The position numbers and the translations under genes were made by a program. Of a stretch of DNA of 64,000 nucleotides, positions 8,322-54,135 are shown one piece after another. How positions within the stretch are numbered: position 1 is the first letter of the stretch; each line of letters begins with the position of its first letter. Source of the stretch: a virus; IMG/VR virus record IMGVR_UViG_3300045988_068596, one strand, 5' to 3'. The notes beneath the pieces were generated by a model. That model saw only the letters and a list, made by a program, of their open reading frames with translations. It had not been told where the DNA came from and searched no databases.

Positions 8322-8343
8322 TGTTTCTCCTCCTTGTTAGGTA

Positions 8344-8781
8344 TTACTCCCATAGGAATATATCGTTTCTTATAACAAAAATGTCTTCTAGCGGAGTATT
8401 ATAATGCAACTCTACATTATGATTTTCTTTCATGTAGGTTTTTGCATAATCAAATAAATGCTCTGGACACTTAAAACTAAATGAACCACCATCTGCATCT
8501 TTGCAAGCTATATGCTCTTCCATAGTACTATTGACAAACCAGTTTACACACTTTGGTGGATAACCTAGCATAATTCCTAGTGCATAATCTTTTCCGTGTT
8601 TTCCTGATAATTTAGAAAACTCAGCTAGTTGTTCCAATTTAGAAACAACAAGTATGCCATTTTTGCCTACAGAAGTTGCAAAATGCTCCCGTACAACACG
8701 TTTAAGTTCCGGTGTCCCAATAAAGATGGCATCTCTTAGTCCCAAATTAAATGCCACAGTTTCTTCTGCTAAAATAACCAT
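8344..8781 (-). CDS. hypothetical protein directly downstream of rtcB
   Basis: ORF; no motif recognised. Confidence 0.45.
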   Translation of the reverse strand: MVILAEETVAFNLGLRDAIFIGTPELKRVVREHFATSVGKNGILVVSKLEQLAEFSKLSGKHGKDYALGIMLGYPPKCVNWFVNSTMEEHIACKDADGGSFSFKCPEHLFDYAKTYMKENHNVELHYNTPLEDIFVIRNDIFLWE

Positions 8782-8844
8782 GATAATCTCTCCTCTTATA
8801 CCTAATTACTCTTTTGATAGTTTGCTTCTTCTAATTGTCCGCCA

Positions 8845-10089
8845 CTATTTCGCTTTAAAATTATATACAGGTTTGACAATCTTTTGAATATCTACTGTAT
8901 CTTTGATGATTTCTTTGATTTCGTCAGCATTCTTGTATGCTTTTGGTGCTTCGTCTAGTGTACTTTGAACAACAGATGTTGTATAGATACCAGACATTGT
9001 TTGTTTAAACTCATCTAAGTCAAGCAGTTCTTTTGCTTTAGAACGAGACAATACACGCCCTGCTCCATGAGGTGCAGAATTATTCCAATCAGTGTTTCCT
9101 TTTCCTACACCAATGATAGAGCCTTCTTTCATGTTTAAAGGAATAACAAGTCTAACACCCTCCTGTGCATCTGTGGCACCTTTACGAATAGTGTTGGAGG
9201 CTACATCAATATAATTATGAATAGAGTCAAATGAGTCAACTACAGTCCAACCCATATTAGAAACAATCTTATCAATGATAGTTTTACGATTCATGTAAGC
9301 ATAACGTTGTGCTAGTTGCATATCATTTAAATAGTCATCCACTGCGGAACCTTCTAAGTATGGCAATTGTGGTTTAACATTGACAGCTTTAAAATTCTTA
9401 ATAGCCTCTTGGATTTCTGCCTGTCTGCCTTCTTGCTTAAGTGTCTCAATCATAGTTGCTAAACCTTTGTCATCACGTTCATGGTATAAATCCGCTTTCT
9501 TCTGGTGATATTGGGCTACTTTAAGTCCTAAAGAACGGGAACCTGTATGAACTAACAAGTAGTAATTGTTTTCGTCATCTTTACTTAATTCGATAAAATG
9601 GTTTCCACCACCTAAAGTACCTAAAGATAAGGTAACACGTTCAATAAATGGTTCTTCTGTTGCACCTTTAAACGTCATAGATTCTAACATGTGCTTAATC
9701 GTATTCGGTACAGTAGGATGAAGTTCGTCCAAATTTTCTCTAATGTTAAACCCAGAAGGAACCACTTTGTTAATCACTGCGTCCAATTTAGCCCATTCGG
9801 TATCTGTCGTGTCTTCTGGCTTCTCAATTTGAGCTACCATAATACCACAACCTACATCTACACCAACAATAGAGGGTACAACTCGTTTAATACCGTCTGG
9901 ATAATGAATCGTTGTACCAACTGTAGAGCCTTTACCATAATGTGCATCTGGCATAATTCTAACAATGCCACCGTCTGTTACCGGTTCATTAATCATTGTT
10001 GTAACCTGACCGATAGTGCCTTCATCGACTGTATTAATAAACATTTTCGCATCAGTATACTTACCGTTAAGTTCAATTAAGTTATTCAT
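8845..10089 (-). CDS. rtcB: RNA-splicing ligase RtcB
   Basis: 414 aa; the motifs MPDAHYGKGSTVG and GVDVGCGM and the C-terminal NSAPHGAGR match RtcB family signatures. Confidence 0.85.
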   Translation of the reverse strand: MNNLIELNGKYTDAKMFINTVDEGTIGQVTTMINEPVTDGGIVRIMPDAHYGKGSTVGTTIHYPDGIKRVVPSIVGVDVGCGIMVAQIEKPEDTTDTEWAKLDAVINKVVPSGFNIRENLDELHPTVPNTIKHMLESMTFKGATEEPFIERVTLSLGTLGGGNHFIELSKDDENNYYLLVHTGSRSLGLKVAQYHQKKADLYHERDDKGLATMIETLKQEGRQAEIQEAIKNFKAVNVKPQLPYLEGSAVDDYLNDMQLAQRYAYMNRKTIIDKIVSNMGWTVVDSFDSIHNYIDVASNTIRKGATDAQEGVRLVIPLNMKEGSIIGVGKGNTDWNNSAPHGAGRVLSRSKAKELLDLDEFKQTMSGIYTTSVVQSTLDEAPKAYKNADEIKEIIKDTVDIQKIVKPVYNFKAK

Positions 10090-10270
10090 CAGTTTTCTCC
10101 CCCACTAATACTTTCTTCATCTTTTCATCTAGTCTCTGTATAATCTCTTGTTGTTCCTGAGCTAGCTTTGCATGGTGTTCACGCTGTTTTTTATACTTAG
10201 CATAAGCAAATAGTTCTTCTGTAGTTAGTTCTTCTAATTTACGTGTAAATGGTGTAGCTTCAAATTCCAT
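10082..10270 (-). CDS. hypothetical small protein
   Basis: ORF. Confidence 0.4.
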   Translation of the reverse strand: MEFEATPFTRKLEELTTEELFAYAKYKKQREHHAKLAQEQQEIIQRLDEKMKKVLVGEKTDE

Positions 10271-11312: not shown

Positions 11313-12053
11313 TTACATTCCCCCTACAAGTTGGATACCTTCGTTTTTAAAGGATACTTCTCTAGCTTTTTCTATTTGTTCTAGTATACGCACAGCTTGT
11401 GAAGCACCACCAAAGCCATTGTTGATATTCACAACAGAAATACCAGAAGTGCAACTAGTTAGTGCAGTATTTAACGCTGTGTAACCATCTGCTGAAATAC
11501 CGTAACCTGTTGAAGTTGGTACAGCAATAATAGGTAAATCAATTAAACCTGCAAGTACTACAGGTAGTGCTCCCTCAAAGCCTTGTACAGATACTACCGC
11601 ATTACTCTTTGTAATAGCATCTGTAGAAGCCATTAGTTTTTTCAAGTCATTTACACCAATATCATGAAACGACACAGGGACATATCCATTTAAAAGTACG
11701 GTTAAATAAGCTTCGTCTACGGTGTCTCTATCAGCTACACCCGCAGATGTAATTGCCACAGATAGGTCACTCTCTGTAGGGTTTGCACGATAAAACGCTG
11801 TCTGACTAGACTTGCAATACACAAAAGGGCTTCCCTCTCCCCAATTATCTACCCAATCTGGTTCCTCAAGTTCCTCTGCTTTTTCTATAATTTCCCCCCA
11901 AGAGAGAACCTGTGATGTTTCAAAAGGTAGTGCGTAGAACACGTCTAAAGGTAATTTTGTTACCATGATATTTGTATCTGCGGGTATCTCTGCAATCTGA
12001 CTGGCTAGTTCCTGTGCAGTTTTATTTCCACCAAATAGTGTACGTAATTTCAT
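11313..12053 (-). CDS. LarB-like / PurE-family enzyme (homolog of the pyridinium-3,5-biscarboxylic acid mononucleotide synthase)
   Basis: 246 aa; the C-terminal block FEGALPVVLAGLIDLPIIAVPTSTGYG...VVNINNGFGGA closely resembles the LarB/PurE-like fold motif GMEGALPSVV..PVIAVPTSVGYG..VVNIDNGFGAA. Confidence 0.6.
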   Translation of the reverse strand: MKLRTLFGGNKTAQELASQIAEIPADTNIMVTKLPLDVFYALPFETSQVLSWGEIIEKAEELEEPDWVDNWGEGSPFVYCKSSQTAFYRANPTESDLSVAITSAGVADRDTVDEAYLTVLLNGYVPVSFHDIGVNDLKKLMASTDAITKSNAVVSVQGFEGALPVVLAGLIDLPIIAVPTSTGYGISADGYTALNTALTSCTSGISVVNINNGFGGASQAVRILEQIEKAREVSFKNEGIQLVGGM

Positions 12054-18500: not shown

Positions 18501-19241
18501 CTAAGTATGTTTTTTCGGTACAAAATATTTCTCTTGAATATTACCGTCTTTATCTACAACAACGCCATTTAACTGTCCGCCATAGGCACAAGCACCATCA
18601 ATAAAGATTGTACGGTCTCCCAAATAAATATCACAGTTATTACCTTTATGAAAGTTCACTGTAGGTGTATGTCCTACAATAATAGTTTTACTTGTCTCGT
18701 TCTTTTGGAATGGATTTGGTCTAGTCCAAAGCATTTCATGTTCCTCTGCTGTTTTCCAGTCTGGCTGTCTCCATCTTGGGATACCTCCATGCACAAATAG
18801 CACGTTACCGAACTCGTAGTAAGGTTCTAGGAGTTCCAAGGTGTCTTTTACATTAGAGTTATTAAGAAGCTCTGTACGCAACGCTAGGGCGCTAAGAGAA
18901 GCTGTCTTAGTTCCTAGAATAGAATTAGCAGTCTCTTGACCTCCTTGATAATACCACACTGAGTATATCTCTTGCAAGTCCTCATAATCTGGTTCTAATC
19001 TTAATGGGAAACTAAGGAAATCTAATAGCATTTGGTCATGGTTCCCTTTAATTGCTGTGCCACCAGAAGCCATATGTTCATAAACAAAACCTAGAACTTC
19101 TTTTGATTGGAGACCTCTGTCTACATAATCTCCTAAAAGAACCAATTCCTGTTCTTCACGATTCCAATTTTTTAATAACTCCATAAACTCATCGTACATA
19201 CCATGTATATCTGATACTACGAACGCTTTCTCTTTGCTCAT
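18501..19241 (-). CDS. PPP-family Ser/Thr protein phosphatase / ApaH-like metallophosphoesterase
   Basis: DIHG, GDYVDRG and GNHD motifs (calcineurin-like, lambda-PPase type). Confidence 0.7.
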   Translation of the reverse strand: MSKEKAFVVSDIHGMYDEFMELLKNWNREEQELVLLGDYVDRGLQSKEVLGFVYEHMASGGTAIKGNHDQMLLDFLSFPLRLEPDYEDLQEIYSVWYYQGGQETANSILGTKTASLSALALRTELLNNSNVKDTLELLEPYYEFGNVLFVHGGIPRWRQPDWKTAEEHEMLWTRPNPFQKNETSKTIIVGHTPTVNFHKGNNCDIYLGDRTIFIDGACAYGGQLNGVVVDKDGNIQEKYFVPKKHT

Positions 19242-19498
19242 TAATCGTCCTCTACTTTCTCAAAATATCGAAAGAACGCATACCAATCATATCGTTCAGT
19301 AACCTGCTTACTCTCGTGCATAAATACAAACTCAACGTATTTGTGTTTAACTGCATGAGGGTCTACTGGTTCCCAAGGAAGCCTGCGAGGATAATCATAA
19401 TAAACTTTTGTTGGAATGACTTCTCGCATTAACAATTTAGGGTACCGCTTTTTAGGACGGTACCTTTTTCCTAAAACATGTTCGTATGTCGGTCTCAT
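19241..19498 (-). CDS. hypothetical protein
   Basis: ORF. Confidence 0.4.
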   Translation of the reverse strand: MRPTYEHVLGKRYRPKKRYPKLLMREVIPTKVYYDYPRRLPWEPVDPHAVKHKYVEFVFMHESKQVTERYDWYAFFRYFEKVEDD

Positions 19499-20103
19499 TC
19501 TACTGTACCATGTTTCGTATAAGTTAAGCCGGACTCGTTGAAATGCTTTTCCTTTTCTTCAATCAAGTCAATACACTCTTTAATTGTGTATGGTGTCCCA
19601 AAAGGGTGTAAAGTTAATTCCGGTGAGTCAATACCTACATTTAGTAAATTAGGTTCTTGATAAGCCATCTCATGAATATGTCCATGTAAGTTTACTCGGT
19701 TTCCTCGACTACCAATAATGAGTGGATAGTGTGTTAAATGGATGATTTTTCTTTCCTGCTTTAGTATTACGCCAACATCACTCCAAAATACTCGTTCACG
19801 TAATTCCTCATCCCGATTAATCGTTTTTAAAAGCTTGGTACTGTCGTGGTTTCCTTTAACCATGATAATGATACCGTTTAGCTTACGAAGAATCTCTAGA
19901 GTATCCTTTGGTTTCTGGTTCATAGCAAAGTCCCCTAGATGGTACACAGTGTCTTCCGGACGAACTCGTTTGTTCCATGTCTTGATTAAGTAATCGTTCA
20001 TTTCGTCCACATCAGCAAACCTACGTCTTGTCTCTACAAAGCCATCTTCTCCACAAATATTGTGATGATTGAAGTGCATGTCTGAAATTACATATGTTTT
20101 CAT
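19495..20103 (-). CDS. calcineurin-like metallophosphoesterase
   Basis: DMHFNHH, HLGDF, GNHD and GHIH motifs. Confidence 0.65.
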   Translation of the reverse strand: MKTYVISDMHFNHHNICGEDGFVETRRRFADVDEMNDYLIKTWNKRVRPEDTVYHLGDFAMNQKPKDTLEILRKLNGIIIMVKGNHDSTKLLKTINRDEELRERVFWSDVGVILKQERKIIHLTHYPLIIGSRGNRVNLHGHIHEMAYQEPNLLNVGIDSPELTLHPFGTPYTIKECIDLIEEKEKHFNESGLTYTKHGTVE

Positions 20104-20675
20104 TCTAGCAACCCTCCCAATTCAAAGTTATCGAAACACTCTGCATTGTATACATTTTGAATGGCATTCCGATAGAACTCTACAGTCTCTAGACTAACTG
20201 GGGTGAAGTTGTGTACATCTACTCCTACATTAAGTCCGTCACGTTTCACCTTTTGTTTTTCATGAATATGCCCAAATAAGCCAAAATAGCCATCTTTGAT
20301 TTTATCTTCTGAATAACTCATATGGGAAGGCTCATGGACAAGAACTAATTTTTGGTCTACAAGAGTGACAATTTCTCCTTTTCTAACAAATTCAAAGTAT
20401 TTTTCTTGTTCCGGAGTAATAAACCCACCTTTACCATCCCGTTCATAGTTACCAAATAATAAATGAATTTTACCTTTAAGCTGTTTAGCTACTTCGAAGT
20501 TACCGAAATCCCCTAAATGGTAAACAGTGTCTTCTTCATCTACAACATCGTTCCACCGTTCTATCATAGCTAAATCAGCATGTTCTACATTATCAAAATA
20601 CATACCTCGCATAGAATATTTGAAAGTACGTTCTTGTCCAAAGTGTGTGTCGGACGTAAACCAAATCTTACTCAT
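20100..20675 (-). CDS. calcineurin-like metallophosphoesterase (paralog)
   Basis: SDTHFG, HLGDFG, GNYE and GHIH motifs. Confidence 0.65.
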   Translation of the reverse strand: MSKIWFTSDTHFGQERTFKYSMRGMYFDNVEHADLAMIERWNDVVDEEDTVYHLGDFGNFEVAKQLKGKIHLLFGNYERDGKGGFITPEQEKYFEFVRKGEIVTLVDQKLVLVHEPSHMSYSEDKIKDGYFGLFGHIHEKQKVKRDGLNVGVDVHNFTPVSLETVEFYRNAIQNVYNAECFDNFELGGLLE

Positions 20676-21209
<534 letters not shown>

Positions 21210-46530: not shown

Positions 46531-46617
46531 TGGAAGGCATGGGATTCGAACCCACACATGCTGTTACACATCTACTTGGTTTCCAACCAAGCCTCTTTAC
46601 CGTTTGAGTAACCTTCC
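46531..46617 (-). tRNA. tRNA-Ser (GGA), class II
   Basis: acceptor GGAAGGT, anticodon stem-loop CTTGG-TTGGAAA-CCAAG, long variable arm. Confidence 0.7.
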
Positions 46618-46712
46618 GTCTTGGGAGCAGGCGGGTTTGTGTCAAGTACACAATACCTAATCTTTTGTGCATGTTGTTCCCTAGGCTTCATGCACACCCT
46701 ACTATCTGCATA

Positions 46713-46898
46713 CTAACAGACCTGCCAATTTTCTAACACTTTTTCTAATGCTTCGTATGGACACATTACTGTCTTACCGTGAACATCATGTATTCTCAAA
46801 ATAATATAATGCTCATTTATCTCGGAGGTAACAAAGTATATCTTGTCCTTCACTAAACCTAAACTTCCGTTTAAACCAATGAATTTTAAATACATCAT
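46713..46898 (-). CDS. hypothetical small protein
   Basis: ORF with AGGAGG RBS. Confidence 0.4.
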   Translation of the reverse strand: MMYLKFIGLNGSLGLVKDKIYFVTSEINEHYIILRIHDVHGKTVMCPYEALEKVLENWQVC

Positions 46899-47211
46899 GT
46901 TACCTCCTAACTATGTATAACCCATGAAGCATCATGGGGGGACTGTAGTATGCCCAACCTGCGGGGATGCTCCGCTCTGAATCCGTAGAAATCAGCCACA
47001 ATTATGTCACTGGTAAGGATTTGCACCTTACATGCACACTTCCATTAGTTAGTCGGCACCTTCGAGATAGGGACATACAGCTTCAATTTTCTAATGGATT
47101 TATAGGAATCTAGCCTTACAGTTGTTTACCCGACTTGTTCTAGACTAGCCTGAATCTTCCCCTGTGCTATACTGTGTTAATTAGCGTTTACCTATTCCGC
47201 CACAGTGACTA

Positions 47212-47559
47212 TGGAGTAGACGGGACTCGAACCCGTGTCCTAACGTAGAACCATACAAAATTCTACGGGCGTAGTTACTAGTTTTAATCTACGTTAAGGT
47301 TACAACTAATAACTGAAATTACCTTAACTGAGTGGTAAAGCCTCTCCTGAGTTATCCACTTTTACCTCAGCGTTGTCGGTTAATGAGTCCTCTAGGTAGA
47401 ACCGACCCTAGTCTAGAGGGGTAAGTGTGTAGCTAGTCTAAAACTAGGCTACAGCTAATAATTCTTCGTTTTTAGCAGTTATATTTACTGCGATGATTAA
47501 GTCATCACTCTGCCCGCTATTCATATATTTCTTACGCCAGTCGAAACCAAAACTACCCC
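47212..47559 (-). ncRNA. ssrA: tmRNA (SsrA), tag peptide AKNEELLAVA
   Basis: 5' end GGGGTAGTTTTGGTTTCGACTGGCG (compare tmRNA 5' GGGGCUGAUUCUGGAUUCGACGGG). Internal frame GCT AAA AAC GAA GAA TTA TTA GCT GTA GCC TAG (47447-47476). 3' tRNA-like end ACGGG-TTCGAGT-CCCGT-CTACTCC-A pairs with the 5' GGGGTAG. Length about 348 nt. Confidence 0.75.
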
Positions 47560-47792
47560 AACATAAGAATTTCTTTTGACTAACCCTACCCTTCCGGCAG
47601 GGTCTAATCAAAAGTATACAATTAAAAAAATGAAAATGAGTTACGGAAAATGTAACATCTCCACCACCGGACTATAAGGGTAAGTTGTTCCGGTCTTTAA
47701 CCTAAGTACTTTACTTAAATCTAACAGGACAGTCTTCATTACGTAAACTACTTAACCATGTAAAACGTAAAGGTCAATTTCCGTTGACCTAA

Positions 47793-47877
47793 TACAAGAG
47801 GAGGGATTCGAACCCTCACGCCCATCATAGGCATGGCATTCTAAGTGCCACATGTCTACCAATTCCAACACTCTCGC
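47793..47877 (-). tRNA. tRNA-Leu (TAG), class II
   Basis: anticodon stem-loop TGGCA-CTTAGAA-TGCCA, long variable arm, T-arm GAGGG-TTCGAAT-CCCTC. Confidence 0.7.
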
Positions 47878-47962
47878 ATAATAACAGCCCTACCCACCTA
47901 CTGTTCTGCTAGCATATAGCTTGCAGGCTTTTTATCTGTGTTATAAAAACCAGAAAGGTTAT

Positions 47963-48045
47963 ACAGGTAACAGGAGTCGAACCTGCATGTCACAAAGGAC
48001 AATGGATTTTAAGTCCACAGCGTATACCAATTCCGCCATACCCGC
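47963..48045 (-). tRNA. tRNA-Leu (TAA), class II
   Basis: anticodon stem-loop GTGGA-CTTAAAA-TCCAT, T-loop TTCGACT. Confidence 0.65.
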
Positions 48046-48222
48046 ATAATCACTTTTTAAACTAGATTATTTATGATTCCTCACTTCTGGAAAAATACCA
48101 CTTTATATATCAACATTTTTCTTATGAATGGGTTAAGATATGTTTTAACGAAAAAGAGGCTAAAAGAGTATTTCCTCAAAATTTTCGGTCAAGTTAATCT
48201 AGTAAGGAAAAGTGTAACCTTA

Positions 48223-48294
48223 TGTGACTGCTCAGAATCGAACTGAGATTCATGTTTCCACAGAACACTGCCTTACCATTAGGCTACAGTCACC
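48223..48294 (-). tRNA. tRNA-His (GTG) with encoded G-1
   Basis: extra 5' G before acceptor GTGACTG/CAGTCAC; anticodon loop CTGTGGA. Confidence 0.75.
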
Positions 48295-48365
48295 ATCATG
48301 TGTTCCTTACAAGAATTACTATACAGCATCTTGTAAGGAAAGTCAACACTTACATATAAATTTAT

Positions 48366-48587
48366 TTAAAAAAGTTTTGATGAATCTAATTGAGAGAAAC
48401 TTTCGGGTAGAGAACCTAGCTCTTCCATGTACTCTTGGTCAATCTCGTAAACAGTTAACTCCGTTACTTCATTTTCAATGGTAAGTTTCATTGCTTCTGC
48501 TGTTTGTATACTGTGTCCTTCTACTTGAAGCTTATCATCAAGATAAATGCCTTCCCAGTCTCCTGCAACTACATAATCTGCTTTCAA
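48366..48587 (-). CDS. hypothetical acidic protein
   Basis: ORF. Confidence 0.4.
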   Translation of the reverse strand: MKADYVVAGDWEGIYLDDKLQVEGHSIQTAEAMKLTIENEVTELTVYEIDQEYMEELGSLPESFSQLDSSKLF

Positions 48588-48595
48588 GATATTAC

Positions 48596-48847
48596 CTACT
48601 TTCTCCTCAATTTCTGATAAAAATTATTATCCTTGTAATCTTCCTCGTGGGCATAAAATTTTTTCATATCATATGTCCAACAAGTTTCTTCTAATCGTTT
48701 ATGATGTGTCAATGTTACTTCATCATCAAAACGACCTTGATTTAATTTATGCCTGTAATTTCTGTTAACCATTCTTTTTATGTCTCGAACAGTTGAATCC
48801 TTCATACAAACATAACGGTAATAGGGTTTTCTGTAACTTCTACTCAT
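48596..48847 (-). CDS. hypothetical basic protein
   Basis: ORF with AGGAGGA RBS. Confidence 0.45.
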   Translation of the reverse strand: MSRSYRKPYYRYVCMKDSTVRDIKRMVNRNYRHKLNQGRFDDEVTLTHHKRLEETCWTYDMKKFYAHEEDYKDNNFYQKLRRK

Positions 48848-48900
48848 TGTAAGTCCTCCTTAATAGGTACTTACAATTTATTTAACCTTTTTTTCATTTT

Positions 48901-49185
48901 TTATAGCCCTCTTTCGAACAGACGTCTTAAAGTCTTACCCTCATTATTTAAAACATATACCGAGTTAACATAAGCCTTTGTCTCTCCTTTGTTGTCAACT
49001 CTATATTCATAGGGTTCATTTGGAACACGGGTAATCTCTTCATGTTTAGAATTAAGTAAAGAAAAAGCATTTTCTTGTTCTAAAAGAAATTGTACCCCAT
49101 CAATAAGTTCGATAAAAGGTTTAGTGGTTGGTTCAGTGCTGTCTTTTGGAACGTATTTTCGTTCTCCCAAAATTTGTAATATCAT
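48901..49185 (-). CDS. hypothetical protein
   Basis: ORF with AGGAG RBS. Confidence 0.45.
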   Translation of the reverse strand: MILQILGERKYVPKDSTEPTTKPFIELIDGVQFLLEQENAFSLLNSKHEEITRVPNEPYEYRVDNKGETKAYVNSVYVLNNEGKTLRRLFERGL

Positions 49186-49293
49186 ATCTATCTATCTCCT
49201 ATATGTGAATATATTTACCTCCCGAAAAACGTTTCTTCACCAAAGTGTAAGACGTAAACTAACGACAGGTCATAGTTTTCCAATTAAGGCAAA

Positions 49294-49367
49294 TACCAGT
49301 GAGAGGATTTGAACCTCTGACACCCGCCTTATCAAGACGATGCTCTAACCAACTGAGCTACACTGGT
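49294..49367 (-). tRNA. tRNA-Ile (GAT)
   Basis: acceptor ACCAGTG, D-arm GCTCAGTTGGTTAGAGC, anticodon loop TTGATAA. Confidence 0.8.
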
Positions 49368-49520
49368 GTGACCCATGTGTCAGGACTTTCACCTGTTCTC
49401 GGGGTGCCCCGCCTCTCTACTAATCTCCTCATTCGGTGCCCCTAATAGAGTGACTAGAGATAGTTAGCAGTAAAAATTATATATCATGAATCAAATTTTT
49501 ACTGCATCCTATATACACGA

Positions 49521-49592
49521 TACCGTCTACAGGATTTGAACCTGTGACATCCACCTTGTAAGGGTGGCGTTCTCCCACTGAACTAAGACGGT
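49521..49592 (-). tRNA. tRNA-Val (TAC)
   Basis: anticodon stem-loop CCACC-CTTACAA-GGTGG, T-loop TTCAAAT. Confidence 0.8.
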
Positions 49593-49600
49593 GAAAAATA

Positions 49601-49669
49601 CGGAAGACAGGATTTGAACCTGCGATATAGGAGTTTTAGTGCACTCATTGTCTCCCACGGTATCCGTTG
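49601..49669 (-). tRNA. tRNA-like element, anticodon unassigned (possible pseudogene)
   Basis: canonical T-arm GCAGG-TTCAAAT-CCTGT and a partial acceptor; no clean D or anticodon arm. Confidence 0.3.
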
Positions 49670-49701
49670 CGTATTGCCATCACGCCACTCCCGTATGCTA
49701 A

Positions 49702-49774
49702 CCGACAGTAAAGGAATCGAACCTCTATCACTAGATTCGTAGTCTAGCATCCTATCCAATTGAACGAACTGTCG
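49702..49774 (-). tRNA. tRNA-Arg (ACG)
   Basis: acceptor CGACAGT/ACTGTCG, anticodon stem-loop CTAGA-CTACGAA-TCTAG, T-loop TTCGATT. Confidence 0.75.
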
Positions 49775-49876
49775 CTCTAGGCTAGCAATTACGCAGACTG
49801 ACTATAGGCACCTTCGTCCCGTCACCTGTAAGTGCCCTCCTACAGGTTGTCCGTGGCACCGCAATGTACTAACCGA

Positions 49877-49950
49877 TGTCCCCACAGGGATTTGAACCCC
49901 GAACCCCCCGATTAAAAGTCGGGTGCTCTAGCCAATTGAGCTATGAAGAC
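49877..49950 (-). tRNA. tRNA-Lys (TTT)
   Basis: D-arm GCTCAATTGGCTAGAGC, anticodon stem-loop CCCGA-CTTTTAA-TCGGG. Confidence 0.75.
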
Positions 49951-50009
49951 AGTTGTGTTTTTCAAGATAACCCTCTCGAAAAACCGTTACTAATAGAAAA
50001 ACTAAGGGT

Positions 50010-50083
50010 CTCGACTGACAGATTTGAACTGCCTGCTCCTCCTAAGAGGCGTGTTACCAAAGCCATACACCAACTCTTCGAGA
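50010..50083 (-). tRNA. tRNA-like pseudogene (anticodon arm replaced by a closed hairpin)
   Basis: T-arm GGCAG-TTCAAAT-CTGTC and a 6-bp acceptor, but the anticodon region is the closed hairpin CCTCTTAGGAGG. Confidence 0.3.
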
Positions 50084-50084
50084 A

Positions 50085-50158
50085 TATCCCCTACAGGATT
50101 CGAACCTGTGACCCCCTGATTAAGAGTCAGGTGCTACCACCAACTGAGCTAAGGAGAT
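50085..50158 (-). tRNA. tRNA-Lys (CTT)
   Basis: anticodon stem-loop CCTGA-CTCTTAA-TCAGG, T-arm ACAGG-TTCGAAT-CCTGT. Confidence 0.65.
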
Positions 50159-50175
50159 AAGATTATCAATAGCTA

Positions 50176-50248
50176 GTTAAGCCTTACGGAATCGAACCGC
50201 CATGAGGTTATGAAGCTCACATAGACCACTAGACACAAAACTAGCTTA
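50176..50248 (-). tRNA. tRNA-like with CAT anticodon (Met/Ile2?), degenerate
   Basis: T-loop TTCGATT, loop TTCATAA; weak stems. Confidence 0.35.
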
Positions 50249-50350
50249 TTGATAAAATTCTATATAGATAATTGTATGCAATGTTCGCACTAACTAACCA
50301 GATAACCAGTCAATCATTCAAAACATTAATTTGTGAGTTTCCGCTCACAA

Positions 50351-50423
50351 TGCTGATTGAGAGAATCGAACTCCCATTCCCGGGTTACAAAGCCGGAGTA
50401 ATAGCCGTTATACTAAATCAGCG
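50351..50423 (-). tRNA. tRNA-Thr (TGT)
   Basis: acceptor GCTGATT/AATCAGC, anticodon loop TTTGTAA, T-arm GGGAG-TTCGATT-CTCTC. Confidence 0.65.
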
Positions 50424-50447
50424 TAACCCCTCAATAGAGGGGAATTA

Positions 50448-51539
50448 TTATACTAAGTTACCATACCCGTAGGTATTTGTTTGAGCTTGTTTAAACATAA
50501 TGCTCTTGATAGTTAAGTCGTTGTACTTTTCATCGTCTTCATCATCAAGGTACACATCAACGTTAACGTTCTTACCGGAAATACCGATTGTTTCGTCTTT
50601 ACCAACTGTTAAGTCTTTACTGTTGAAGGATACATCAAAGTAAATGCTATCTTCTTTTGTACGACTACCGAACGAAACTCTGTCACCGAATAAATCTAAG
50701 CTTCGAGAGTTGATTACAACAGGTTGTAACCCACCTTCAAATTGAATAGTTACTGTGTAATATTGATTTTCAATATTAAGGATGTTTAAGTCAGCAATAG
50801 CTTCACCAAATGGGATACCAAAGCTTAATTCCAATGCAATTGCTCGTAAGCAGTCATAGTTTAACTTAATTCTACGACTAAACTTAACAACACTGTCAAT
50901 TTCACCATAGTAAGCTTCGTCTAACTTATCTTGCAAGTAAGTACGAATTTCATCTGCATCAGGATATTCGAAACGTAAATGATAATGGAAACGTCCCGGA
51001 CGGTTAAGCATAAAGTCATTTACACGACTTAAGCTATTAACAGTAAGAGCGTAGATACGTTTACGTTGTGATAAACCATCGAATAAGCTCAATAGTTTTT
51101 CTTGTGGTTCACGACCGTCACGGTCATTAAATACTTTTTCAAATTCATCGAACAGGATAAGAGACTCTTGGTCAATACTGTCAATAAATTCTGCAATCCC
51201 CGGATAAGCTTCTGTAATTAAGATAACAGGCATATCCTCTTCAATAGCTCGTTGAGATAATATTTGAGTAAATAGTGATTTACCAATCCCTTTGTCTCCA
51301 CTTAAAATGATTCCTAAGCTACGATTAATTGTTTTAAATGTGTGTAGCACTTTTTCAATTTTAGCTAAACGGTCACCGTAAACTTTAGGTTCTTTCAATT
51401 CAAAATCGTCTGTTACTACTAGTGAGAACCCAGACATTGGATTGAATCGAACTTTATAAGTTTGCGCAGGCAACTTATCATAAGTTTTAAGGTCGTTTGC
51501 ATAAATTTCATAGTTACTACCATAGTTGATTACTTTCAT
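50448..51539 (-). CDS. AAA+ ATPase
   Basis: Walker A GDKGIGKS and Walker B ILFDEFE; start MKVINYG (the ORF-track upstream extension would overlap tRNA-Phe). Confidence 0.6.
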   Translation of the reverse strand: MKVINYGSNYEIYANDLKTYDKLPAQTYKVRFNPMSGFSLVVTDDFELKEPKVYGDRLAKIEKVLHTFKTINRSLGIILSGDKGIGKSLFTQILSQRAIEEDMPVILITEAYPGIAEFIDSIDQESLILFDEFEKVFNDRDGREPQEKLLSLFDGLSQRKRIYALTVNSLSRVNDFMLNRPGRFHYHLRFEYPDADEIRTYLQDKLDEAYYGEIDSVVKFSRRIKLNYDCLRAIALELSFGIPFGEAIADLNILNIENQYYTVTIQFEGGLQPVVINSRSLDLFGDRVSFGSRTKEDSIYFDVSFNSKDLTVGKDETIGISGKNVNVDVYLDDEDDEKYNDLTIKSIMFKQAQTNTYGYGNLV

Positions 51540-51578
51540 AAATATTCCCCTTATTCGTGTTTTATTAGCATTTGCTAA

Positions 51579-51652
51579 TGGAGAGGGGTGGAATTGAACC
51601 ACCGACCCCTAGGGTTTCAATCTAGTGCTCTAACCTACTGAGCTACCTCTCC
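51579..51652 (-). tRNA. tRNA-Phe (GAA)
   Basis: acceptor GGAGAGG, D-arm GCTCAGTAGGTTAGAGC, anticodon loop TTGAAAC. Confidence 0.7.
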
Positions 51653-51774
51653 GTGTCAATTTGGACTTATCCCCCACGTGGTTACTAAGATAAGTCCTAT
51701 GCCTTTGAAGTGTGGATACTCAAAAAATGAGTACAGGTACTAAAAATCTGATGACAAGTCAGATTTATGTCATA

Positions 51775-51847
51775 AGCAGAAGGTGAGATTCGAACTCACG
51801 TTCAGGGGTTTGCAATCCCTAGCCTTAACCCACTTGGCTACTCCCGC
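51775..51847 (-). tRNA. tRNA-Cys (GCA)
   Basis: anticodon loop TTGCAAA, T-arm GTGAG-TTCGAAT-CTCAC. Confidence 0.65.
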
Positions 51848-52087
51848 ATTGGCATCCCTCTAGGTTTTTATCTGCATCGGGACTCACATAAACTGATAAG
51901 TGAAAACAGGGCACTAGTCTGCTTTACACCTGCGCTATCAGAACCTAGACTCAGCAACACTGCCTTAGATGACTTTAATCTTGTAAACACGTCACATTCT
52001 TCAACAATTACCAGTAGAGTGCTACATACCAGTAATTCGTTCCTGTGAAGGATAGTACACTATAACTATCACCGCTGTCCAAGAATA

Positions 52088-52159
52088 CACGCCGTGAAGG
52101 ATTCGAACCCCCGTCTTCCGGGTTGGAGCCGGAAATGATAGCCACTACACCAACAGCGC
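52088..52159 (-). tRNA. tRNA-Trp (CCA)
   Basis: anticodon stem-loop TCCGG-CTCCAAC-CCGGA. Confidence 0.7.
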
Positions 52160-52246
52160 AAGATTCGGAGGGGAGGGACTAGCAACCCTCCGAAAAATGT
52201 AAGATAATGAGAGATTAAAACATGCCACTATTAAAAGTGGAATAGG

Positions 52247-52292
52247 TAATTAAGGATTCGAACCTTACAAGCCCTTACTGCTTACCTTGTAA
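52247..52292 (-). ncRNA. tRNA-like minihelix (acceptor plus T-arm only)
   Basis: AGGTAAG, 13 nt, TAAGG-TTCGAAT-CCTTA, ATTACCT; no D or anticodon arms. Confidence 0.3.
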
Positions 52293-52329
52293 ACTTATAG
52301 TATCATGTGTTGTACCGAAAGTCAACACT

Positions 52330-52362
52330 TTTTATAAAAATAATAGGGAGAAATATTTCTCC
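52330..52362 (-). terminator. intrinsic terminator (GGGAGAAATATTTCTCCC plus T-run)
   Basis: perfect hairpin followed by TATTATTTTTAT on the minus strand, then an AAGTGTTGAC promoter. Confidence 0.5.
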
Positions 52363-52369
52363 CTAAAAA

Positions 52370-52443
52370 TGGACTATACCGGAATTGAACCGATGACCTG
52401 TCAGTTATGAGCTGACGGCTCTGACCTACTGAGCTAATAGTCC
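52370..52443 (-). tRNA. tRNA-Met (CAT)
   Basis: D-arm GCTCAGTAGGTCAGAGC, anticodon stem-loop GTCAG-CTCATAA-CTGAC, T-loop TTCAATT. Confidence 0.8.
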
Positions 52444-52650
52444 GTGTAATAATACCACGAAATAAACCTTAGTAAGTCATATAGTCCCAGAAAGGGAGAC
52501 ATATGAAACTAGTGTTGAATGCCATAATCGTTTAATAAATGTGACTGAGAGAGTAATAAATTTCTTAGGCATGTCCATATGCCCCCTTTCCAATAATGAT
52601 AGTTTTAAGATATAAACAGAATAAATAAAAGAGAAAATAATAATGAATAA

Positions 52651-52723
52651 TAGCGCATGAGAGAGTCGAACTCTCGATTCCGGTTCGAAAGACCGGTGTC
52701 TTGACCGCTTGACCAATGCGCCA
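52651..52723 (-). tRNA. tRNA-Arg (TCG)
   Basis: anticodon stem-loop CCGGT-CTTTCGA-ACCGG. Confidence 0.7.
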
Positions 52724-52727
52724 TAAA

Positions 52728-52803
52728 CGAGCTATATGGGACTTGAACCCATGACCTTCTCCGTGACAGGGAGACGAGCACTCCTGACTGCTCCAATAGC
52801 CCA
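52728..52803 (-). tRNA. tRNA-Asp (GTC)
   Basis: anticodon stem-loop TCTCC-CTGTCAC-GGAGA, T-arm ATGGG-TTCAAGT-CCCAT. Confidence 0.7.
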
Positions 52804-52927
52804 ATGTTTCCCCAACCACCGCCACCTAGGGGATTCGTACGTCTACGTGAGTTTTCTGGTTATACATTATTGTTCAAGACAATAGTTGTACGAGTGGAAT
52901 ACCAATTTACCACTCTGCGGTTCCTAT

Positions 52928-52999
52928 TGCGGTAGGTGGGAGTCGAACCCACTAAAGCTTGGTTATGAGCCAAGTGCCTAAACCGTTCGGCATCTCCGC
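52928..52999 (-). tRNA. tRNA with CAT anticodon (Met/fMet/Ile2), imperfect acceptor stem
   Basis: anticodon stem-loop CTTGG-CTCATAA-CCAAG, T-arm GTGGG-TTCGACT-CCCAC. Confidence 0.55.
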
Positions 53000-53702
53000 A
53001 GTAATACAAGTCTGGTTAAAAACTCAAAACTTAATAGATTAAGGGCTTTTCTTCCTGCTTCATATACACTCACTGCATTCGGTCACATACTCAGAGAGGC
53101 TGAACCATCGGGAGCTACCCAATAGCTTCTCTCTGCCTTTAATGTATGGTCTAGCACGGTGGCTAACAACGTTCACCTAAACATTCAGCATTAAAAGTAT
53201 TATTTTACATATAACCCATATGTCTTCTGTAATATTTTCATCCAACGCTGACTTAAGCTACTTGTACCAAGGTCTCTTGTTAAACCTGTATTTCTACAGT
53301 TCTCGTCAAAGGGAGTCTTTTGAGTTTTCCAAGGTCTGCCAAGCTTCTCACACTTCCACCTAACTTGGATTCTTTTCCACAGGAACGTCTATTGTATCCC
53401 CCAAGAGTCTTGTACCTTACAATCCATGTATACTCCACATAACGCTTAACTGATATTAGCTTTTACTAATAGTTACTCCTATGTTACCATAAGACCTACC
53501 TGCAACCCAAAGCACTATCGCACCTTCGGTTACATCCAGATTCACGCCACGTTATCCTAGCAAGCTGTTCAAACTTTCTGCACTAGGTTCAAAATCTATT
53601 AAGTTTTCAATTTTTAACCACTAACTTGTGGTGTAATATTAATATAGCATAACATTACAAAGTTGTAAACACCTTTTTGTAAGTTTTTTTGATTTTTTTT
53701 GA

Positions 53703-53791
53703 TGGAAGGTAAGGGGGTCGAACCCTTACACCGGATTTCTCCGACCTAACTGATTAGCAATCAGCCCTCTTAACCATTTGAGTAACCTTCC
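53703..53791 (-). tRNA. tRNA-Ser (GCT), class II
   Basis: acceptor GGAAGGT, anticodon loop TTGCTAA, long variable arm. Confidence 0.7.
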
Positions 53792-53830
53792 AAAAGCAAA
53801 AAGGGAACCCCTGTAATTAAACAGGGGTAA
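53792..53830 (-). terminator. intrinsic terminator (CCCCTGT..ACAGGGG plus T-run)
   Basis: hairpin followed by TTCCCTTTTTGCTTTT on the minus strand. Confidence 0.55.
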
Positions 53831-53900
53831 GAGAGATGTCTCTAAAAGCCTACAACCATTATAACATAGAAACATAGTTTGTACAGCCGTAACTGTACAA

Positions 53901-53972
53901 CTGTCAGGACAGGGTTCGAACCTGTATCGCAACCTTCAAAGGGTCGTGTCCTACCTGTTAGACGACCTGACA
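53901..53972 (-). tRNA. tRNA-Gln (TTG)
   Basis: acceptor TGTCAGG/CCTGACA, anticodon stem-loop CGACC-CTTTGAA-GGTTG. Confidence 0.7.
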
Positions 53973-53974
53973 AA

Positions 53975-54022
53975 AAGGTGGAACCTCCCTAAATTTGGGG
54001 AAGAGGGAGGTTCTCATGCTAT
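53975..54022 (-). terminator. intrinsic terminator-like hairpin (GAACCTCCCT/AGGGAGGTTC)
   Basis: 10-bp stem followed by CACCTTTTTG on the minus strand. Confidence 0.4.
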
Positions 54023-54064
54023 TAACAAACACGAATTTGCTAACCAAGTAATCTTGACTAGCAA

Positions 54065-54135
54065 CTCACCTAGCAGGACTTGAACCTACAAGAACTGGTT
54101 AACAGCCAGTCATGATACCGTTTCATCATAGGTGA
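54065..54135 (-). tRNA. tRNA-Asn (GTT)
   Basis: D-arm ATGAAACGGTATCAT, anticodon stem-loop ACTGG-CTGTTAA-CCAGT. Confidence 0.7.

Follow-up and report, generated by a model that had tools for sequence, protein, structure and literature searches.

An RtcB RNA ligase of a Schiekvirus is a known, optional gene located apart from the Ro-like/tRNA RNA block

Does an RtcB RNA ligase that is encoded by a phage together with a large tRNA set, a tmRNA and a Ro-like protein act as part of one RNA repair suite, or does it stand apart from these components? The question is raised by a 64,000-nucleotide stretch of viral DNA (IMG/VR record IMGVR_UViG_3300045988_068596), the whole of which is called the window here and which belongs to a Schiekvirus, a myophage of the Enterococcus phage EFDG1/TJE2 type. 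An initial annotation had seen in this combination a coordinated counter-defence against host tRNA cleavage and ribosome stalling. The ORF at the center of the proposal is:

8845 to 10089, minus strand: RtcB, RNA 3′-phosphate/2′,3′-cyclic phosphate : 5′-OH ligase (ATG start, 414 aa)

Its identification as RtcB was borne out. The Pfam RtcB profile PF01139 matched with 198.8 bits (E = 2.5e-58; cutoff 27), residues 43–412 of the ORF aligning end to end with positions 15–425 of the 426 in the model, and PHROG 1075 ('tRNA splicing ligase') matched with 459 bits. Comparison with 21 homologs (47–71% identity) revealed D48, H50, D78, C81, N163, H164, H181, H291, H341 and R345 as invariant. In an alignment, D65, H67, D95, C98, N202, H203, H234 and H404 of P. 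horikoshii RtcB are the counterparts of invariant positions; D78, C81, H164, H181 and H341 of the phage ORF correspond to P. horikoshii D95, C98, H203, H234 and H404, respectively, while H291 presumably corresponds to H329, as read from the invariant HN motif and not from direct alignment. The window RtcB is a genuine, full-length and apparently active RNA-repair ligase with an intact active site, and a GTP/Mn2+-dependent activity on 3′-phosphate or 2′,3′-cyclic-phosphate and 5′-OH ends would be expected. Two NCBIfam equivalogs of characterised bacterial RtcB types scored far under their cutoffs, PRK09588 with 105.4 bits (cutoff 407) and TIGR03073, the PrfH-associated RtcB2 ('release_rtcB'), with a partial match of 84.6 bits (cutoff 271.8), so the preferred substrates are possibly not those of the E. 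coli enzyme.

RtcB in Schiekvirus phages is real, ordinary and known already. The GenBank-annotated RtcB of phage EFGrKN is 100% identical to the window protein, and the deposited Schiekvirus proteins are labeled 'RtcB', 'tRNA splicing ligase' or 'RNA-2′,3′-PO4:RNA-5′-OH ligase'. Nothing of substance distinguishes them from the window, which represents a further isolate of the genus. Homologs were detected in 697 phage records. Among the RtcB-positive Schiekviruses (EFGrKN, TJE2, EFDG1, EfV12-phi1 and others) the protein is 98–100% identical at an unchanged genomic position, a degree of conservation that implies purifying selection. A literature search returned no paper joining RtcB and Enterococcus phage and no experimental datum on any phage RtcB.

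Among Enterococcus phage records, RtcB was found in 23, and its neighbourhood was matched by 31. In TJE1 and phiSHEF13, the RtcB coding sequence is swapped for an unrelated 129-aa ORF with a homology break at 10091/10092, position 10092 being the point at which homology resumes. Natural RtcB-positive and RtcB-negative pairs share hosts, namely TJE2 and TJE1 on E. faecium UCH1 and phiSHEF16 and phiSHEF13 on E1071. The window RtcB is a swappable single-CDS accessory cassette, not a core gene, in a long leftward gene cluster. Its surroundings contain the following features:

8344 to 8781, minus strand: 145-aa ORF downstream of RtcB (PHROG 9516)
8888 to 8860: promoter-like site, the 145-aa ORF's own
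10082 to 10270, minus strand: 62-aa ORF, its stop overlapping the RtcB start by 8 nt (PHROG 23831, unknown function)
10350 to 10325: terminator-like hairpin upstream of the 62-aa ORF

The 62-aa ORF is mere context, because RtcB-less TJE1 keeps it. That the RtcB gene itself is dispensable in nature would fit a neutral passenger, or an enzyme that acts on DNA by sealing or ppG-capping 3′-phosphate nicks introduced by host nucleases; according to work cited in PMC7790460, E. coli RtcB ligates and caps DNA 3′-phosphate ends. We regard this explanation as extremely improbable. The strictly conserved catalytic residues and the near-identity of the protein across isolates speak against a passenger, and the absence of DNA-repair genes around RtcB speaks against DNA ends as substrates.

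Scans of the genes flanking RtcB with Pfam, NCBIfam and PHROG profiles gave no match to RtcA, RtcR, archease or PrfH/release factor. The 145-aa ORF had been suggested as a possible archease, which found no support in sequence or in co-inheritance. It matched nothing beyond noise in Pfam at E ≤ 10, archease (PF01951) included, and its homologs comprise four clusters only, all of them close relatives (72–99% identity). An 80% identical homolog is kept by RtcB-less phiSHEF13, and none is present in TJE1. The AF2 model of this ORF reached a pLDDT of 47.6, because just four close homologs exist. Judged by its flanking genes, the window RtcB is a predicted stand-alone enzyme with neither RtcA nor archease encoded alongside. 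The nearest relatives occur as lone genes, one in an Enterococcus prophage beside HicAB and terminase genes and the other on a Lysinibacillus chromosome.

The role that we consider probable, if not strongly so, is that of a conditional accessory, which reseals RNAs, above all tRNA anticodon loops, cut by host RNases in infection. The breaks would be introduced by metal-independent host ribonucleases such as anticodon nucleases and toxin-antitoxin or abortive-infection RNases, and the anticodon loops could belong to host- or phage-encoded tRNAs. In the GTP/Mn2+-dependent reaction a histidine, putatively His341, would take on GMP. The enzyme would then open the 2′,3′-cyclic phosphate, pass GMP to the RNA 3′-phosphate and join this end to the 5′-OH, working without archease and without RtcA. 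As it would act on breaks made by host RNases, the ligase would matter only on hosts carrying such a system. We infer this substrate and this counter-defence role for the window RtcB, and the idea as such is not new, having been published between 2011 and 2021. Protection by mycobacteriophage RtcB against host tRNA cleavage was hypothesized by Pope et al. 2011 (PMC3203893), and a counter-defence RtcB in jumbo phages by Iyer et al. 2021 (PMC7824862). Hughes et al. 2020 (PMC7790460) suggested that YrlA competitively inhibits an anticodon nuclease and provide an E. coli/Salmonella precedent for RtcB and cleaved tRNAs. In mycobacteriophage subcluster K1, whose RtcB (e.g. Anaya gp88) is approx. 32% identical to the window RtcB, the proposal was derived from a co-occurring phage tRNA (PMC3203893). 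Subcluster K1 consists of temperate siphophages with a single tRNA, whereas the phage of the window is a virulent myophage of large size that carries 26 tRNAs and belongs to a genus with variable RtcB.

Phage T4 uses Pnkp and Rnl1 to reseal tRNA-Lys cut in the anticodon loop by PrrC, a host abortive-infection nuclease. The logic, a phage enzyme resealing a host-cut tRNA, is shared with the proposal for RtcB. The chemistry differs in that T4 heals the ends before an ATP-dependent ligase acts on 3′-OH/5′-phosphate, whereas RtcB would seal 3′-phosphate/5′-OH ends directly with GTP, and the enzyme families are unrelated. This resealing logic of T4 is discussed in PMC7824862.

The other components named in the initial annotation are located in a different region of the window. 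A Ro-like gene is accompanied by YrlA-like elements:

42278 to 43810, minus strand: Ro60-fold protein, 510 aa, HEAT-repeat ring plus vWA/MIDAS (Pfam DUF2828+DUF7788)
43880 to 43852: promoter-like site of the Ro-like gene
43923 to 43898: terminator-like hairpin after YrlA-like RNA 1
44053 to 44166, minus strand: YrlA-like RNA 1 (Rfam YrlA 45.9 bits, E = 1.3e-8; structural descriptor match)
44245 to 44338, minus strand: YrlA-like RNA 2 (Rfam YrlA 35.8 bits, E = 1.1e-5; descriptor match)
44459 to 44431: sigma-70-like promoter (11/12, extended −10) ahead of YrlA-like RNA 2
45345 to 45445, minus strand: YrlA-like RNA 3, between tRNA-Pro and tRNA-Ala (Rfam YrlA 28.4 bits; descriptor match)

The Ro60-like protein stood up by fold but not by sequence. 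DUF7788 (154.6 bits) and DUF2828 (93.3 bits) were matched in Pfam and TROVE (PF05731) was not, and a PDB sequence/profile search yielded nothing useful apart from a weak vWA match. The AF2 model (pLDDT 91.1, pTM 0.91) was compared with the PDB using Foldseek, and the top eight matches were all Ro60/TROVE structures, covered at full length with TM scores of up to 0.62 and sequence identities of 12–15% to solved Ro60 structures. The matches include 1yvr (E = 2.4e-7, TM 0.62) and the phage Ro60 9l5y. A fold match without a TROVE sequence match indicates a Ro60-fold relative that is not a TROVE member by sequence. The MIDAS-type motif D311-x-S313-x-S315 (DxSxS) is invariant in 44 homologs. The relationship to Ro60 is visible only by fold comparison, and a literature search for 'DUF2828' returned unrelated plant and tardigrade papers only.

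The claim of tRNA-like decoys found support in the three YrlA-like elements, but all of them scored below the Rfam RF02553 gathering score of 69. Their tRNA-like core fits the family well, with many non-pairs in the outer stems. In YrlA-like RNA 1 (fold energy −35.5 kcal/mol) the permuted tRNA-like core consists of a T-arm, an 8-bp hairpin and a D-arm, and the minimum free energy fold of YrlA-like RNA 3 (−41.4 kcal/mol) displays a closing stem followed by T-arm, hairpin and D-arm. These are putative RNAs that may work in the manner of YrlA yet lie outside RF02553 by the Rfam criterion. YrlA-like RNAs 1 and 2 are located 240–530 nt upstream of the Ro-like gene in a promoter-terminator unit of their own and are predicted to be Y RNA partner genes adjoining it. 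An explicit structural descriptor was used with controls for a scan of other loci instead of a covariance model, because MAFFT left the variable hairpin out of structural register. With this strict descriptor, which under-counts, Y-like elements turned up 240–310 nt upstream of the homologous Ro-like gene at 13 of 80 viral loci, compared with two poor matches in 80 control loci. A descriptor match at 54040–54089 of the window was discarded as a false positive, which borrows the T-arm of tRNA-Asn.

Similar phage modules have been described elsewhere. Thermus phage phiLo encodes phiRo60 with two Y-RNA-like genes, Yrl1 and Yrl2, immediately upstream (PMC12135203). Felixounavirus Bas63 gp130, a Ro60-fold protein encoded directly beside a tRNA array, was genetically shown to counter the Ppl defence (PMC11482910). 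RtcB is not involved in these two studies, and the window differs in that its partner RNAs are unannotated and fall under the Rfam threshold.

Upstream of the Ro-like gene, the window contains:

44739 to 54136, minus strand: tRNA array with 26 tRNAs for all 20 amino acids (ARAGORN and Rfam)
47209 to 47559, minus strand: tmRNA (ARAGORN; RF00023 145.1 bits, gathering score 47, full model)
49599 to 49694, minus strand: aberrant tRNA-like RNA of 96 nt (Rfam tRNA 33.3 bits, 30-nt anticodon-loop insertion)
50448 to 51602: AAA+ ATPase gene inside the tRNA array (Pfam AAA)
53025 to 53611, minus strand: ROOL RNA inside the tRNA array (RF03087 260.1 bits, gathering score 99.1, E = 3e-58, full model)

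ARAGORN at default settings found 24 tRNAs and the tmRNA, the latter at 47212–47559; Rfam and permissive ARAGORN added tRNA-Tyr(GTA) at 44739–44820 and a second tRNA-Met(CAT) at 52927–53000. About 27 tRNAs had been claimed, a number that is reached if the 96-nt RNA is counted, whereas the supposed triple CAT tRNAs were reduced to two CAT anticodons by ARAGORN and Rfam. The array also holds a few small ORFs, and the ROOL RNA was absent from the earlier list of components. PADLOC gave zero matches for RtcB, the Ro-like protein, the ATPase and the 145-aa ORF.

The tmRNA, whose presence was confirmed, encodes the tag peptide AKNEELLAVA* and is labeled ssrA in the records of several related phages. 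Its presence could be taken to mean that RtcB acts mainly on targets other than tRNA, such as damaged rRNA (as for RtcB2 with PrfH), cleaved mRNAs or the tmRNA, and restores ribosomes after ribotoxin attack. The weak partial match to TIGR03073 and the HicA mRNA-interferase toxin adjoining the nearest Enterococcus prophage homolog would be in line with such targets. We nevertheless hold this to be very unlikely, as the TIGR03073 score lies far under its cutoff, no PrfH/release-factor homolog was found among the scanned RtcB neighbours and the tmRNA is located 37 kb from RtcB.

Conservation of the 96-nt RNA extends over 29 Schiekvirus records, which hardly ever annotate it. It possesses acceptor, D and T arms, but in place of an anticodon arm there are a mini-hairpin and a second hairpin whose loop measures 18–20 nt. 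Two lineages with 77–79% identity share one five-helix fold with compensatory changes. RtcB is a tRNA-splicing and RNA-circularising ligase in archaea and animals, and a tRNA-like RNA with a 30-nt anticodon-loop insertion next to permuted tRNA-like RNAs might suggest that the phage enzyme matures phage RNAs by splicing, circularising or joining the 96-nt RNA, the Y-like RNAs or the ROOL RNA. The chance of this is slight in the extreme: phiSHEF13 and TJE1 still have these RNAs without RtcB, no splicing endonuclease was found, and the insertion folds as conserved hairpins with no bulge-helix-bulge. The more specific idea of the 96-nt RNA as an RtcB-dependent spliced tRNA was rejected, as RtcB-less phiSHEF13 retains the RNA and the insert consists of conserved hairpins.

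The arrangement of these features bears on the question of a common pathway. In the window, the distance from RtcB is approx. 32 kb to the Ro-like gene, approx. 35 kb to the nearest tRNA and, as mentioned, longer still to the tmRNA, and coverage of the Ro-like/tRNA/tmRNA/ROOL block is still about 93% in RtcB-less TJE1 and phiSHEF13. Linkage was further examined within ±10 kb in 160 viral loci, 80 centered on Ro-like genes and 80 on RtcB. tRNA genes were present in 64 of the 80 Ro-like loci versus 24 of the 80 RtcB loci, and RtcB was found within 10 kb of a Ro-like gene in one Ro-like-centered locus and in none of the RtcB-centered loci. The Ro-like gene, Y-like RNAs, tRNAs, tmRNA and ROOL RNA form a separate RNA block that is far more conserved than RtcB.

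Two cases of close proximity were observed. In the Listeria Pecentumvirus phage VAfA18, the Ro-like gene is followed 1.2 kb downstream by RtcB, with tRNAs and a ROOL-like RNA alongside, and on one metagenomic IMG/VR contig (L028) the distance is 139 bp, again downstream; such adjacency points to a possible functional tie to the Ro module. In Pecentumvirus (P100/A511 group; Herelleviridae relatives) the set of components equals that of the window, with RtcB approx. 50% and the Ro-like protein approx. 44% identical, but tRNAs, ROOL-like RNA, Ro-like gene and RtcB are contiguous there, whereas in the window 32 kb separate the Ro-like gene from RtcB, which is optional. The linkage of bacterial Rsr-YrlA to rtcBA, on which the initial annotation had relied, is correct: the Salmonella rsr-yrlBA-rtcBA operon joins RtcB with a Ro60 ortholog and YrlA tRNA mimics and is responsive to tRNA halves with cyclic-phosphate ends (PMC7790460). 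Enzyme family and catalytic residues are common to the window RtcB and to E. coli/Salmonella RtcB, which is under RtcR. By contrast, the window lacks RtcA and RtcR in the scanned RtcB flanks as well as an RtcB-Ro-like operon, its Ro-like protein is a DUF2828 member and not a canonical TROVE protein, and its RtcB scores below the NCBIfam equivalog cutoffs.

From such linkage, and from the fact that every component is found within the window, one could argue that RtcB, Ro-like protein, Y-like RNAs, tRNAs and tmRNA constitute one co-evolved RNA repair/quality-control pathway, in which the Y-like RNAs have a decoy or scaffold function, damaged tRNAs are recognised by the Ro-like protein and RtcB seals them. 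We consider this unlikely. The components of the proposed suite are real and are adjacent in Pecentumvirus, but in the window genome RtcB is 32–35 kb from the block, the block is kept by RtcB-less congeners, and RtcB and a Ro-like gene were close in just 1/160 sampled loci. Moreover, the two families differ in the phages that carry them, Ro-like genes being found in Felixounaviruses and Campylobacter phages and RtcB, with a single tRNA, in cluster K mycobacteriophages. Under the favoured reading of RtcB as a conditional resealing accessory, the separate block probably serves the same broad end, sustained translation during an attack, in different ways, which may include tRNA replacement, RNPs for decoy or degradation, and the rescue of ribosomes.

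A bolder and quite unlikely version combines both elements. In it, the Ro60-fold protein, the Y-like mimics and the 96-nt RNA would be the core of a phage system for tRNA protection, and RtcB its conditional sealing arm. The mimics would soak up or report host anticodon nucleases, the Ro-like RNP would triage cut RNAs and RtcB, where present, would re-ligate them, and Listeria phages, with RtcB next to the Ro-like gene, would preserve the ancestral gene order. If this were true, the RtcB on/off polymorphism in Schiekviruses would track Enterococcus strains with an RNA-cutting defence.

The value of the RtcB gene as a discovery is small, since it is annotated in the genus, RtcB is present in approx. 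700 deposited phage genomes and the hypothesis is over a decade old. The quantitative result is that phage tRNA islands go with a DUF2828 Ro60-fold protein and not with RtcB. As a by-product, the analysis revealed unannotated RNAs in therapeutic Enterococcus phages, comprising three Y-like RNAs, one conserved aberrant tRNA-like RNA and one ROOL RNA. In practical terms, TJE2/TJE1 and phiSHEF16/phiSHEF13 represent ready-made natural RtcB-positive and RtcB-negative pairs for the anti-tRNA-cleavage hypothesis.

The window derives from a Schiekvirus (Herelleviridae, Brockvirinae), one of the virulent Enterococcus myophages with genomes of about 150 kb. The 4.2 kb surrounding the RtcB gene displayed 99.2% identity to phage TJE2 and 98.1% to EFDG1, which is nearly collinear with the window at an offset of about 79 bases. 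The locus comprises two adjacent ORFs:

8845..10089, minus strand, RtcB RNA ligase (ATG start, 414 aa)
8344-8781, minus strand, 145-aa ORF adjacent to RtcB

In agreement with the initial annotation, the RtcB ORF is real and matched Pfam PF01139 over its full length (model positions 15-425 of 426; 198.8 bits, cutoff 27; E 2.5e-58). PHROG 1075 'tRNA splicing ligase' matched at 459 bits, and a sequence search retrieved the solved RtcBs of Pyrococcus, Thermus and human. The metal ligands D95, C98, H203 and H234 of P. horikoshii RtcB aligned to D78, C81, H164 and H181 of the phage protein, and the guanylylated H404 to H341. These five residues as well as D48, H50, N163, H291 and R345 were invariant among 21 homologs (47-71% identity). 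Since the catalytic positions are aligned and invariant, the protein is very probably an active ligase.

This RtcB is already known, at record level too. Phage EFGrKN encodes a 100% identical protein annotated as 'RNA-2',3'-PO4:RNA-5'-OH ligase', and GenBank labels the counterpart in EFDG1, EfV12-phi1, PEf771 and others 'RtcB' or 'tRNA splicing ligase'. Homologs were detected by tblastn in 697 of 50,697 phage records, with Mycobacterium (221), Bacillus (63) and Listeria (58) among the hosts. The closest relatives are lone genes, one in an Enterococcus prophage and one in a Lysinibacillus chromosome, neither of which has archease, RtcA, RtcR or PrfH as a neighbour. The former is the closest Enterococcus 'cellular' RtcB (52% identity; chromosome end of Enterococcus sp. 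AZ103, L173); shortly downstream of this prophage gene lie a HicA/HicB toxin-antitoxin pair, an HNH gene, and terminase and portal genes. Temperate Enterococcus phages also carry RtcB, in the AZ103 case with no tRNA array in the 6-kb flank examined.

An archease had been suspected in the 145-aa ORF. This suggestion found no support: the ORF gave no Pfam match at E<=10, the RtcB-less phage phiSHEF13 has a homolog, and the closest RtcB relatives have no archease neighbour. Homologs of the ORF form only four clusters, all at least 72% identical, and its promoter-like site lies inside the 3' end of rtcB. The predicted structure (pLDDT 47.6) was too low in confidence for use, and the PHROG label 'replication initiation protein' is not to be trusted. 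The RtcB of E. coli is functional without archease.

Comparison within the genus characterized RtcB as a swappable cassette. The RtcB neighbourhood was matched by 31 phage records, while RtcB itself is encoded in only 23 Enterococcus records. In TJE1, an unrelated ORF replaces window positions 8336-10091, which hold both the 145-aa ORF and RtcB; in phiSHEF13 the replaced segment is only ~8832-10091, i.e. RtcB alone. The homology break coincides exactly with the RtcB start codon. The slot is occupied by:

L003:1935-2324 (TJE1 locus), 129-aa ORF unrelated to RtcB
L004:1990-2379 (phiSHEF13 locus), 129-aa ORF unrelated to RtcB

Pfam gave no match for this ORF, and its only PADLOC hit was weak (PDC-M08B, E 3.9e-4); its gene possibly serves a substitute accessory or anti-defence function. 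E. faecium UCH1 served as isolation host of both TJE1 (RtcB-less) and TJE2 (RtcB-positive), and E1071 as that of both phiSHEF13 (RtcB-less) and phiSHEF16 (RtcB-positive). RtcB is therefore dispensable on those hosts. Both RtcB-less phages keep about 93% of the 12.4-kb block carrying the Ro-like gene, Y-like RNAs, tRNAs, tmRNA and ROOL RNA, at about 94% identity. A role of RtcB in the maturation of phage RNAs is contradicted by the persistence of all those RNAs in RtcB-less phages, and is highly improbable. We assign a similarly slight chance to RtcB having a DNA-end function or being a neutral passenger.

For the tRNA array, ARAGORN at default settings detected 24 tRNAs and a tmRNA in the window. 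Rfam and permissive ARAGORN added a second tRNA-Met(CAT) (52927-53000) and a tRNA-Tyr(GTA) (44739-44820), giving 26 tRNAs that serve all 20 amino acids. The initial annotation had listed a tmRNA, which is present, and about 27 tRNAs with three CAT tRNAs; the twenty-seventh match is an aberrant tRNA-like RNA, and the CAT tRNAs are two, not three. Further elements of the array are:

47212-47559, minus strand, tmRNA (ARAGORN; tag AKNEELLAVA*)
49599-49694, minus strand, aberrant tRNA-like RNA of 96 nt, between tRNA-Val and tRNA-Arg
50448-51602, minus strand, AAA+ ATPase of 384 aa (PHROG 2376), in the middle of the tRNA array
53025-53611, minus strand, full-length ROOL RNA (260 bits), inside the tRNA array

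The 96-nt RNA has normal acceptor, D and T arms, while two hairpins, one of them miniature and the other with a loop of 18-20 nt, stand in for the anticodon arm. It is kept in 29 Schiekvirus records, among them RtcB-less phiSHEF13, and is annotated in almost none. Folded separately, two sequence lineages (77-79% identity) give the same shape of five helices, and each of the two novel hairpins carries compensatory changes (ACGG/CCGT to CCGTG/CACGG and GGGAG/CTCCT to GGAAG/CTTCT). The ROOL RNA was missing from the initial list and is without annotation in the EFDG1 record; the region that includes it shows about 90% conservation in Kochikohdavirus phages as well, and ROOL is known to occur near phage tRNA islands (PMC12286853). 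The AAA+ ATPase gene and its flanking tRNAs are conserved together in Schiekvirus and Kochikohdavirus.

The Ro-like gene and the three Y-like RNAs are:

42278-43810, minus strand, Ro-like protein of 510 aa (Pfam DUF2828 and DUF7788, weak vWA match)
44053-44166, minus strand, YrlA-like RNA 1 (Rfam YrlA, 45.9 bits)
44245-44338, minus strand, YrlA-like RNA 2 (35.8 bits)
45345-45445, minus strand, YrlA-like RNA 3 (28.4 bits)

By sequence, Pfam TROVE was not assigned to the Ro-like protein, and neither the protein nor a 44-sequence profile retrieved Ro60 from the PDB. Its AlphaFold model (pLDDT 91, pTM 0.91), however, resembled Ro60/TROVE structures: these made up the eight highest-ranking PDB hits, all full-length, among them Xenopus Ro (1yvr; E 2.4e-7, TM 0.62) and Ro60 of Thermus phage phiLo (9l5y). 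The MIDAS motif DxSxS is invariant in 44 homologs. Thus, the proposed Ro60-like protein has a Ro60 fold according to the model, but its sequence places it outside the TROVE family. The proposed tRNA-like decoys exist as the three Y-like RNAs, all of which score below the Rfam YrlA gathering score of 69; the match covers a permuted tRNA-like core (T-arm, closed acceptor-like hairpin, D-arm), whereas the outer stems are poor. On the minus strand, a predicted promoter (11/12, extended -10; 44459-44431) is followed by Y-like RNAs 2 and 1, a terminator (43923-43898), a second promoter (43880-43852) and the Ro-like coding sequence. The two RNAs look like a transcription unit of their own that directly precedes the Ro-like gene; in phiLo, Yrl1/Yrl2 precede phiRo60 in the same arrangement (PMC12135203).

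A structural descriptor of the permuted core was scanned against 80 Ro-like-centred viral loci, with 80 RtcB-centred loci and shuffled sequence as controls. In 13 of the 80 loci, from diverse viral contigs, such elements occurred no more than 1.5 kb from the Ro-like gene; nearly all shared its strand, at a typical upstream distance of 240-310 nt. The RtcB-centred loci gave two poor matches and shuffled sequence 1-7. Mycobacterium phage MsGreen has an Rfam YrlA match beside its Ro-like gene. The YrlA-like RNAs of the window and the one at L006:4564-4672 are unannotated, and all score under the gathering threshold. This recurrence suggests that the DUF2828 family widely has Y-RNA-type partners, for which these are candidates. 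Such a partnership was not found stated in the searchable literature; the supplement of a 2014 survey lay outside that search.

The initial annotation had joined RtcB and these RNAs in a coordinated repair suite. In the window, some 32 kb separate RtcB from the Ro-like gene, and the nearest tRNA is some 35 kb away. Within 10 kb on either side, the 80 Ro-like-centred IMG/VR loci contained tRNAs in 64 cases (54 within 3 kb), tmRNA in five and RtcB in one; the RtcB-centred loci contained tRNAs in 24 of 80 (12 within 3 kb) and neither a Ro-like gene nor tmRNA (0/80 each). Both samples include near-duplicates, and the counts describe local linkage rather than genome-wide co-occurrence. In 8 of 8 unrelated GenBank phages inspected (Listeria, Mycobacterium, Escherichia, Staphylococcus, Campylobacter, Bacillus, Vibrio and Stenotrophomonas), tRNAs lay within 3 kb of the Ro-like gene. 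Hence phage tRNA islands partner with the Ro-like gene and not with RtcB. Members of the Ro-like family were present in 698 phage records, whose host profile (Escherichia 120, Mycobacterium 95, Salmonella 77, others) is unlike that of RtcB. In cluster K1 mycobacteriophages, RtcB is accompanied by only one tRNA. Four lines of evidence, namely distance, presence or absence in the genus, the linkage sample and distribution, indicate that RtcB is separable from the RNA block.

The components of the suite are nevertheless present, and linked elsewhere. In Listeria Pecentumvirus VAfA18, tRNA-Arg and tRNA-Pro precede a ROOL-like RNA (L005:1460-2011; at 89.8 bits slightly below threshold), which the Ro-like gene follows directly. 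Next come four small ORFs and then RtcB, 1.2 kb from the Ro-like gene. On contig L028, RtcB follows the Ro-like gene after 139 bp, and the cited bacterial linkage of Rsr-YrlA to rtcBA holds for the Salmonella operon rsr-yrlBA-rtcBA (Hughes et al. 2020). These arrangements make a functional relationship between RtcB and the Ro-like module plausible. A fully coordinated suite in the window's phage is unlikely, given the distance, the retention of the block without RtcB and the scarce linkage; in Schiekvirus each behaves as a module, with RtcB an optional one.

Other genes of the window include:

11313-12053, minus strand, LarB homolog (nickel-pincer cofactor biosynthesis; NCBIfam 158 bits, cutoff 175), two genes from RtcB
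18501-21206, minus strand, three consecutive calcineurin-like metallophosphoesterases, then a DEDD (Rv2179c-like) 3'-5' exoribonuclease

The LarB homolog is labelled 'circadian phase modifier' in EFDG1, whose annotation also lists a NadR-like NMN adenylyltransferase and two PnuC transporters. The metallophosphoesterases and the exoribonuclease are possible nucleic-acid end-processing enzymes.

Protection against host tRNA cleavage was proposed in 2011 for mycobacteriophage RtcB from its co-occurrence with tRNAs (PMC3203893). In the picture drawn by Iyer et al. (2021), RtcB/Rnl ligases complement the phage tRNAs, as does a ROT/TROVE protein together with its tRNA-like partner (PMC7824862). In Anabaena, tRNA arrays are co-regulated with rtcB, the tRNAs being regarded as 'sponges' for toxin RNases (PMC8421152). 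YrlA is a possible competitive inhibitor of anticodon nuclease (Hughes et al. 2020), and Felixounavirus Bas63 counteracts the Ppl defence system through a Ro60-like protein encoded beside its tRNA array (PMC11482910). The literature searched yielded no experimental work on any phage RtcB.

RtcB-mediated repair of rRNA, mRNA or tmRNA is improbable: the PrfH-type model TIGR03073 reached 84.6 bits (cutoff 271.8), and PrfH did not appear among the neighbours scanned. With moderate confidence overall, we favour a stand-alone RtcB that travels as an accessory cassette and reseals host-cut RNAs; the biological role within this explanation has about an even chance of being right. Host defence or toxin RNases would cut RNAs to leave 2',3'-cyclic-phosphate and 5'-OH ends, and the phage RtcB would reseal them, most likely at tRNA anticodon loops. 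Such an RtcB would be useful only on hosts with these nucleases.
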